64,000 nt of DNA. Source: Escherichia coli. Lineage in GTDB: Bacteria; Pseudomonadota; Gammaproteobacteria; Enterobacterales; Enterobacteriaceae. The position numbers were made by a program, and so were the translations under genes. The stretch is taken from NCBI RefSeq assembly GCF_051903065.1, contig NZ_CP178438.1; one strand, given 5' to 3'. Position 1 is the stretch's first letter, and every line of letters starts with the position of its first letter. Below, in pieces: positions 60,407 to 60,805 of this stretch. The notes under the pieces are model-generated. The model did not search any database. It was given only the letters and a program-made list of their open reading frames with translations, and was not told where the DNA came from.

Positions 60407-60805
60407 TCTTTCAGTTTCTCACTGTCAGTATGCGGCTGAATGGGGTGCTGACAGTGAACGCCTGGATCATTGAAGGAAAGGAATTATTGCGCAAATAGTT
60501 GTCAACCCTGGTGTTATCACAGTTGTTTTTATATATCATTGAAATAATTTCTATGGCAACTATCAATGATAGTGATGTCGAAGAGTTATTTGTTAAACAA
60601 AATCGTCACCTCAAAGTGATCAATGTCATGAAAATAAGGTGAAAAATGATAATGCCGACTTATTTATCATTTATATATTGTAGCTGTTTATCTATTTAAA
60701 TTTCTTGTGCTTTTGTTTTTGTCTTTACCCTCCGTTTTGGTAATCTGAACTCATAGGTTATTTGACCAGGAATGTTTGTTAATCCAATGAATGGATGGTT
60801 AATCT

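Follow-up and report, generated by a model that had tools for sequence, protein, structure and literature searches.

We conclude that the 29-codon open reading frame (ORF) located on the plus strand of the DNA that separates ymgF from the autotransporter gene ycgH, in a 64,000-nucleotide (nt) stretch of the Escherichia coli contig NZ_CP178438.1 (assembly GCF_051903065.1; this entire stretch is hereinafter the window), is most likely a chance ORF in a non-coding, AT-rich regulatory spacer and represents neither a gene nor a leader peptide, a reading to which we assign a probability of about 0.87. This verdict is reached because a ribosome-binding site (RBS), conservation in a sister species, a coupled RNA element, purifying selection and homologues all fail to materialize. 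The initial annotation had offered a leader peptide and a chance ORF as alternative readings, calling the case weak; the second of these two options is supported by the present analysis whereas the first is not.

The existence of the frame is not in question: as originally described, it extends from the ATG at 60553 to the TGA at 60640-60642 and is translated as MATINDSDVEELFVKQNRHLKVINVMKIR. The description of its surroundings as a strongly AT-rich region of about 400 base pairs (bp) is accurate as well. From the sequence and the ORF listing, the spacer comprises positions 60407-60805, that is, the 399 nt between the end of ymgF at 60406 and the autotransporter ATG at 60806, and its GC content is 33.8%, with values of 28.5-31% in 200-nt windows across 60500-60799 against 43-51% in pdeG. 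A frame of this size in such DNA calls for no special explanation. In 5,000 shuffles of the spacer that preserved the dinucleotide composition, 65% yielded a plus-strand ATG frame no shorter than 29 codons, and 86% yielded one on either strand. The same frame is open from an upstream TTG, for 47 amino acids (aa); plus-strand frames of at least 47 codons that start with ATG, GTG or TTG were present in 35% of the shuffles. Furthermore, the minus strand of the actual spacer contains an equally 'good' ATG frame of 42 codons. The reason originally suggested for the emergence of such ORFs, namely that AT-rich DNA yields few stop codons in some frames, does not hold here, given that stop codons are themselves AT-rich; the count for the frame that includes the short ORF is 5 stops in 132 codons, the lowest among the frames.

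The signals expected of a translated leader are equally hard to come by. When the energy of the duplex with the anti-Shine-Dalgarno sequence of 16S rRNA was computed, no Shine-Dalgarno (SD) sequence was found ahead of the ATG at 60553: the 18 nt that precede this codon (AUAUCAUUGAAAUAAUUU) give +0.4 kcal/mol, compared with a median of -2.2 for random positions of the window and with -6.2 and -4.1 kcal/mol for the ATG codons of ycgH and ymgF, respectively. The last codons of the frame are ATA and AGG, both of which are rare. A regulatory upstream ORF (uORF) usually overlaps or abuts a terminator/antiterminator or a helix that sequesters the RBS. The stop codon of the short frame is separated from the ycgH ATG by 163 nt, and a promoter and terminator scan of positions 60000-61000 detected neither a terminator-like element nor a plus-strand promoter-like site above the shuffle expectation. 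The RNA folds predicted for 60520-60660, around the short frame, and for 60685-60830, before ycgH, are not significant (z = -1.9 and z = +0.74, respectively), and the scan of 59500-61500 against Rfam, with E-values up to 1 accepted, produced no match. Two long-range pairings in the list of inverted repeats, I5 and I6, cross each other and are unsupported by the fold, and were accordingly taken as chance.

A scan for YmgF among the GTDB species representatives brought up four non-coli Escherichia loci. At one of these, that of Escherichia sp. E1V33, a homologous leader precedes an intact autotransporter gene encoding 880 aa (locus L009, 3326-5968), and the position of the short-ORF start is occupied by CTG, with an in-frame TAA at codon 21. 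The initial annotation had named loss or interruption of the ORF in closely related strains as the observation that would speak against it, and both are encountered, the former in MG1655 and the commonest E. coli allele, where the codon is ATC, and the latter, along with the CTG, in E1V33. When the E. coli locus L003 is compared with that of E1V33 in 30-nt windows, no part of the leader is less conserved than the segment that harbors the short ORF, at 70% identity overall and 63% in the worst windows; the 120 bp before the ycgH start are 87-97% identical, a level that exceeds the 85.8% of ymgF and the 73% of the autotransporter gene. From this pattern of interspecies identity, it follows that the target of selection is the proximal core of the spacer and not the short frame. 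Both the leader and the autotransporter are absent at the loci of E. whittamii, 'E. coli' SCPM-O-B-8794 and E. albertii (L008, L010 and L011), and judging from this distribution, the autotransporter locus seems to go back to the ancestor of the genus and to have been deleted in the three. At the E. whittamii locus (L008, 4370-4602), all that is left of the gene is its final ~100 nt, and the translation of this remnant, ...AASVWGNVGVQQANNGYNDTAVMVGFKYKF (...VMVGFKYKF), ends in a stop.

Within E. coli, the start codon is not a stable character either. MG1655 has ATC where the window has ATG, and its curated annotation contains no gene in the spacer. We searched for alleles of the 56 nt that surround the start codon in 5,426 genomes, about 5,057 of which carry the region. 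The K-12-type patch, with ATC, is the commonest (2,334 exact and 2,446 near matches); ATG is found in the B2-type patch (578 exact, 984 near), the L003-type patch (286 exact, 679 near) and the window-type patch (3 exact, 254 near). Thus, the start codon is missing from close to half of the E. coli genomes in which the region is present. In the alignment of 20 sampled E. coli spacers, which represent 13 haplotypes, 58 of the 399 columns are variable, and the start codon falls in the patch where polymorphism is densest. The pattern of variation in this patch resembles that left by quasi-palindrome (template-switch) mutation. The differences inside the frame are 3 synonymous and 14 non-synonymous, so that the synonymous share, 0.18, equals the 0.18 expected from random mutation; by codon position, the variable columns number 7, 4 and 5, with no excess at the third. 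Purifying selection on the peptide is therefore not seen in the substitution pattern of the E. coli alleles. Nor is the TTG extension conserved, the upstream part being shifted out of frame by a 1-nt deletion in the B2 strains.

Searches for homologues lead to the same locus over and over again. The 29-, 47- and 50-aa versions of the product and the 51-aa product of the minus strand have no match in Pfam or NCBIfam. When the 47-aa version was compared by phmmer with 1.84 billion cluster representatives, six matches were retrieved, all of them alleles of the same locus with 74-97% identity and with differing ends chosen by the gene callers; beyond the ymgF-ycgH locus, this search detected no homologue. 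Copies of the leader were not found upstream of other autotransporter genes, and each E. coli genome has it in one place. Annotation pipelines report the frame as products of 29, 39, 42, 43, 44, 47 or 50 aa, with boundaries that move with small indels, and the versions of 64-70 aa include unrelated N- or C-terminal sequence. The NCBI Prokaryotic Genome Annotation Pipeline (PGAP) places a 50-aa 'hypothetical protein', WP_001167734.1, over this frame in at least 1,000 contigs, an example being E. coli R13, which carries the B2-type allele (L005, 690-842). Two changes account for this 50-aa call, the 1-nt deletion and a C-to-T substitution by which a GTG is generated further upstream, and WP_001167734.1 is probably an annotation artefact.

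Several observations weigh against the chance-ORF reading, and most of these feed into the alternative that survives best, improbable as it is. Under this alternative, the frame is a lineage-restricted, cis-acting uORF, such that translation as such rather than the peptide modulates the autotransporter, and the ATG was replaced by ATC only after the death of the latter. The autotransporter is intact in 5 of the 20 sampled E. coli genomes (ycgH in L003 and L019; an allele of the ECIAI39_1904 family in L006, L020 and L021) and dead in 15, as a result of frameshifts, internal stops, splits, or insertions of IS903B, IS1 or IS2; these annotated genomes were sampled because a word-indexed search for YcgH proteins had brought up nothing longer than fragments of 344 aa. 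The initial annotation had recommended examining the conservation of the ORF in strains with intact ycgH, and within E. coli, the ATG and the 29 codons are indeed retained in all five intact strains, the autotransporter being a pseudogene in all nine strains with ATC. The autotransporter is also dead in six strains with ATG, and the raw counts amount to a weak association, with a one-sided hypergeometric probability of 0.03 by our own arithmetic. The ATC strains all carry the same haplotype (CCTCATC) and hence the association is effectively a single event linked by descent, to which little weight can be given. Furthermore, the frame is open for exactly 29 codons in 20 of the 20 E. coli spacers, the 1-nt deletion in the B2 strains restoring the stop codon at the same place, and a uORF of the peptide-independent type would not require a ratio of non-synonymous to synonymous substitution rates (dN/dS) below 1. 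Translation without an SD sequence is possible on A/U-rich leaders, and published ribosome profiling of K-12 would sample the ATC allele and not the ATG allele. The regulatory side of the chance-ORF reading faces difficulties of its own, in that binding of H-NS and RNA polymerase to the spacer is reported by one in vitro study (PMC3946193), and the promoter given there for the spacer (TTGACA-19-TATAAG) maps, with one mismatch, inside ycgH. What counts against the uORF is the lack of an SD sequence, the position of the start codon within the most variable patch, the absence of such an ORF in E1V33 where the autotransporter is intact, and the distance of its stop from the ycgH ATG, an interval of 163 nt in which neither a terminator nor a structure that sequesters the RBS is found. 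A more specific version, in which an SD-less uORF tunes the transcription or translation of the adhesin gene in lineages whose autotransporter, of the ycgH or the ECIAI39_1904 type, still works, perhaps through an action against Rho or H-NS on a long AT-rich leader, seems slightly less probable still. Should a uORF exist nevertheless, the replacement of ATG by ATC in the A/B1-type haplotype would represent decay after the loss of the autotransporter.

Comparably long odds are attached to the proposal that the real element overlaps the frame, with the ORF a mere by-product; a small RNA or an antisense transcript could be this element, as could the minus-strand 51-aa frame (60411-60566) or a palindrome bound by a protein. 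Blocks within the frame that are invariant at all codon positions in E. coli, such as GATGTCGAAGAGTTATTTGTTAAACAAAAT and AAAGTGATCAATGTCATGAAAATAAG, might hint at such an element, but these blocks are only 63-80% conserved in the comparison with E1V33, and neither an Rfam match, nor a significant fold z-score, nor a plus-strand promoter-like site beyond the shuffle expectation accompanies them. The minus-strand frame, antisense to the spacer, encodes 51 aa from a TTG or 42 aa from an ATG and is open in MG1655 as well (52 aa). Its product belongs to no family in Pfam or NCBIfam, and minus-strand frames of such length are expected by chance. Two inverted repeats could qualify as palindromes. The first is peculiar to the haplotype of the window (3 exact matches among the 5,426 genomes), whose variants build a perfect 9-bp inverted repeat, TATCATTGA-N20-TCAATGATA, that brackets the ATG. 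In the other alleles, 3 to 8 of the 9 positions are paired, and in most of them 3 to 5; this repeat was rejected as a conserved element given that it is perfect in the window haplotype only. The second inverted repeat, at 60644-60672, is conserved, its arms being identical in all sampled E. coli alleles and reading GATAA/TTATC in E1V33; it lies downstream of the short-ORF stop, and the GATAAT-like half-sites suggest a possible binding site for a transcription factor or another protein.

That the frame, in its 29-aa form or in the versions of 47-50 aa, encodes a functional small protein is barely credible and is largely refuted by the comparative data, notwithstanding the repeated predictions by gene callers (the 50-aa WP_001167734.1 as well as 47-aa and 39-aa products): the 3 synonymous and 14 non-synonymous differences are as in the absence of selection, the N-terminal extension differs in frame between phylogroups, about half of the genomes lack a canonical start codon, E1V33, the sister species, has a broken frame, neither homologues outside the locus among the 1.84 billion representatives nor Pfam or NCBIfam matches are detectable, and the terminal codons, ATA and AGG, are rare.

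The chance-ORF reading is also the one that fits best when the frame is set beside known systems. With the leader peptides and uORFs of enterobacteria, such as the attenuators of the trpL type, the arrest peptides of the tnaC and secM type, and toiL upstream of topAI, it has in common a short, sense-strand ATG frame located before a larger gene. Unlike these systems, it lacks an SD sequence, a conserved start, a coupled structure and conserved arrest or regulatory codons; 163 nt lie between its end and the start of the downstream gene, and E1V33, a sister species in which that gene is intact, does not have it. The closest likeness is to the 'hypothetical protein' calls made spuriously in intergenic DNA of high AT content, with which it shares the shifting boundaries and from which it shows no difference of substance.

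What, then, could be the function of the spacer? It is best seen as non-coding, AT-rich and probably H-NS-bound regulatory DNA. The ymgF>ycgH spacer is listed both for binding of the RpoD holoenzyme and as an H-NS site in the genomic systematic evolution of ligands by exponential enrichment (SELEX) analysis of K-12 (PMC3946193). Its role would be to control the transcription of an adhesin-type gene that is usually silent, and taking these SELEX data together with the base composition, the most likely mechanism would be silencing of an AT-rich promoter region by H-NS, a form of control in which the short frame would have no part. The resemblance to the H-NS-bound upstream regions of cryptic adhesin and autotransporter genes of E. 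coli extends to the AT-rich spacer (28-34% GC), the downstream gene of the surface-adhesin type that is a pseudogene in most strains, and the SELEX listing for RpoD and H-NS (PMC3946193); the differences are that H-NS binding in this case is reported in one in vitro data set and that the published promoter maps inside ycgH. Specifically, the TTGACA-19-TATAAG site is found at position 5879 of the MG1655 locus (L001), which corresponds to about 61083 in the window, 278 nt into ycgH, and being intragenic, this 'constitutive promoter' was rejected as the promoter of the spacer. The same fate befell the sigma-S peak labelled ycgH in a chromatin immunoprecipitation sequencing (ChIP-seq) study (PMC4447067, U00096.2 coordinates), which was considered as a signal from the leader and turned out to be located 0.6-1.1 kb inside the pseudogene. 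There are, then, hints of intragenic promoter-like sites in the AT-rich ycgH pseudogene. A looser promoter scan of the spacer gave weak candidates only (Table 1), and no convincing sigma-70 promoter could be placed in silico. Phase variation through Dam and OxyR or Dam and Lrp, as in Ag43 or pap, is not evident: as read by eye, the spacer contains only two, widely spaced GATC sites (at about 60465 and 60618), and only one of them is kept in E1V33.

In its overall layout, the spacer starts with a hairpin 3' of ymgF, followed by ~230 bp of AT-rich, weakly constrained and highly polymorphic DNA that house the short frame, and ends with the conserved proximal core. The hairpin is probably the 3'-end hairpin of ymgF. 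Its predicted stability is -27.6 kcal/mol (z = -4.15; none of 200 shuffles was as stable), and the stem is kept in E. coli, E. whittamii, E1V33 and SCPM-O-B-8794, with one pair seen as T-A, T-G and C-G across strains. As a stable, GC-containing and conserved stem-loop after a stop codon, with one covarying pair, it is similar to an intrinsic (Rho-independent) terminator, the difference being the lack of a U-tract in E. coli, where the sequence 3' of the stem reads ...CAGTGAACGCCTGGATC and the terminator scan made no call. In the sister species, a T-run is present 3-5 nt past the stem, TTTTTT in SCPM-O-B-8794 and TTTT in E1V33. Because E. coli has no T-run after the stem, the hairpin is not a canonical intrinsic terminator in this species and, for the same reason, ymgF transcription may read through into the ycgH leader. 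At the other end of the spacer, the proximal core presumably holds the core promoter, the 5' untranslated region and the RBS of ycgH.

The coordinates of all these features are collected in Table 1. Gene names were taken from the annotation of strain 23CRST027, which is 100% identical to the window over the tested 901 bp (K-12 shows 96.2% identity), and from that of MG1655. The local gene order is pdeG, ymgF, the spacer and ycgH, the last being disrupted by IS903B in this window; the lesions of the ycgH locus are independent among the sampled genomes. The passenger-domain alleles of the ycgH and ECIAI39_1904 families are 73.6% identical at the nucleotide level, have both the leader and the initial ~68 nt of the coding sequence in common, and part company at a homology breakpoint near window position 60873.

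Table 1. Features in and around the ymgF-ycgH spacer (window coordinates).
Feature	Position	Strand	Basis or remarks
pdeG	58533..60056		first gene in local order
ymgF coding sequence, 72 aa, upstream neighbour	60188..60406	+	annotation in 23CRST027 and MG1655
ymgF-ycgH spacer, 399 nt	60407..60805		sequence and ORF listing
Stem-loop TCACTGTCAG-N19-CTGACAGTGA, 13 nt past ymgF stop	60419..60457	+	perfect 10-bp inverted repeat; RNA fold
Variable AT-rich DNA	60460..60685		regional layout
Same frame as the 29-codon ORF from upstream TTG, 47 aa	60499..60642	+	ORF listing; 'hypothetical protein' of some gene callers (47 aa, or 50-aa GTG version)
Weak promoter candidate GTGTTA-17-TATCAT	60511		looser promoter scan
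Polymorphism hot patch: start codon and codons 1-7 of short ORF	60536..60574	.	15/39 columns variable vs 43/360 elsewhere (20 spacers)
29-codon ATG frame, judged chance ORF	60553..60642	+	shuffles, SD duplex, allele and sister-species comparison
Weak promoter candidate ATGTCA-19-GATAAT	60623		looser promoter scan
Inverted repeat AAATGATAA-N11-TTATCATTT, just 3' of short-ORF stop	60644..60672	.	inverted-repeat list and alignment
Weak promoter candidate ATGCCG-16-TATATT	60652		looser promoter scan
Conserved proximal core	60685..60805	+	87-97% identity vs E1V33; SD-like GGATGG at 60793-60798
Weak promoter candidate TTGTCT-16-TAATCT, TG extension	60719		looser promoter scan
ycgH autotransporter 5' fragment, cut by insertion sequence (IS)	60806..61405	+	PGAP 'incomplete; missing C-terminus'; start = MG1655 ycgH start
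IS903B-family (IS5-like) transposase gene splitting ycgH	61427..62395	+	322-aa ORF; annotation WP_000654812.1

The biological weight of these findings is small, and a weak lead can be considered closed. In terms of annotation, the implication is that the 'hypothetical protein' calls with which pipelines mark this frame in numerous E. coli genomes, such as WP_001167734.1 in B2, are most likely spurious. The parts of this region that selection has preserved are the 120 bp before the ycgH start and the ymgF hairpin. For studies of the expression of the autotransporter locus, these proximal 120 bp, the ymgF hairpin and H-NS are, accordingly, better targets than the short frame.
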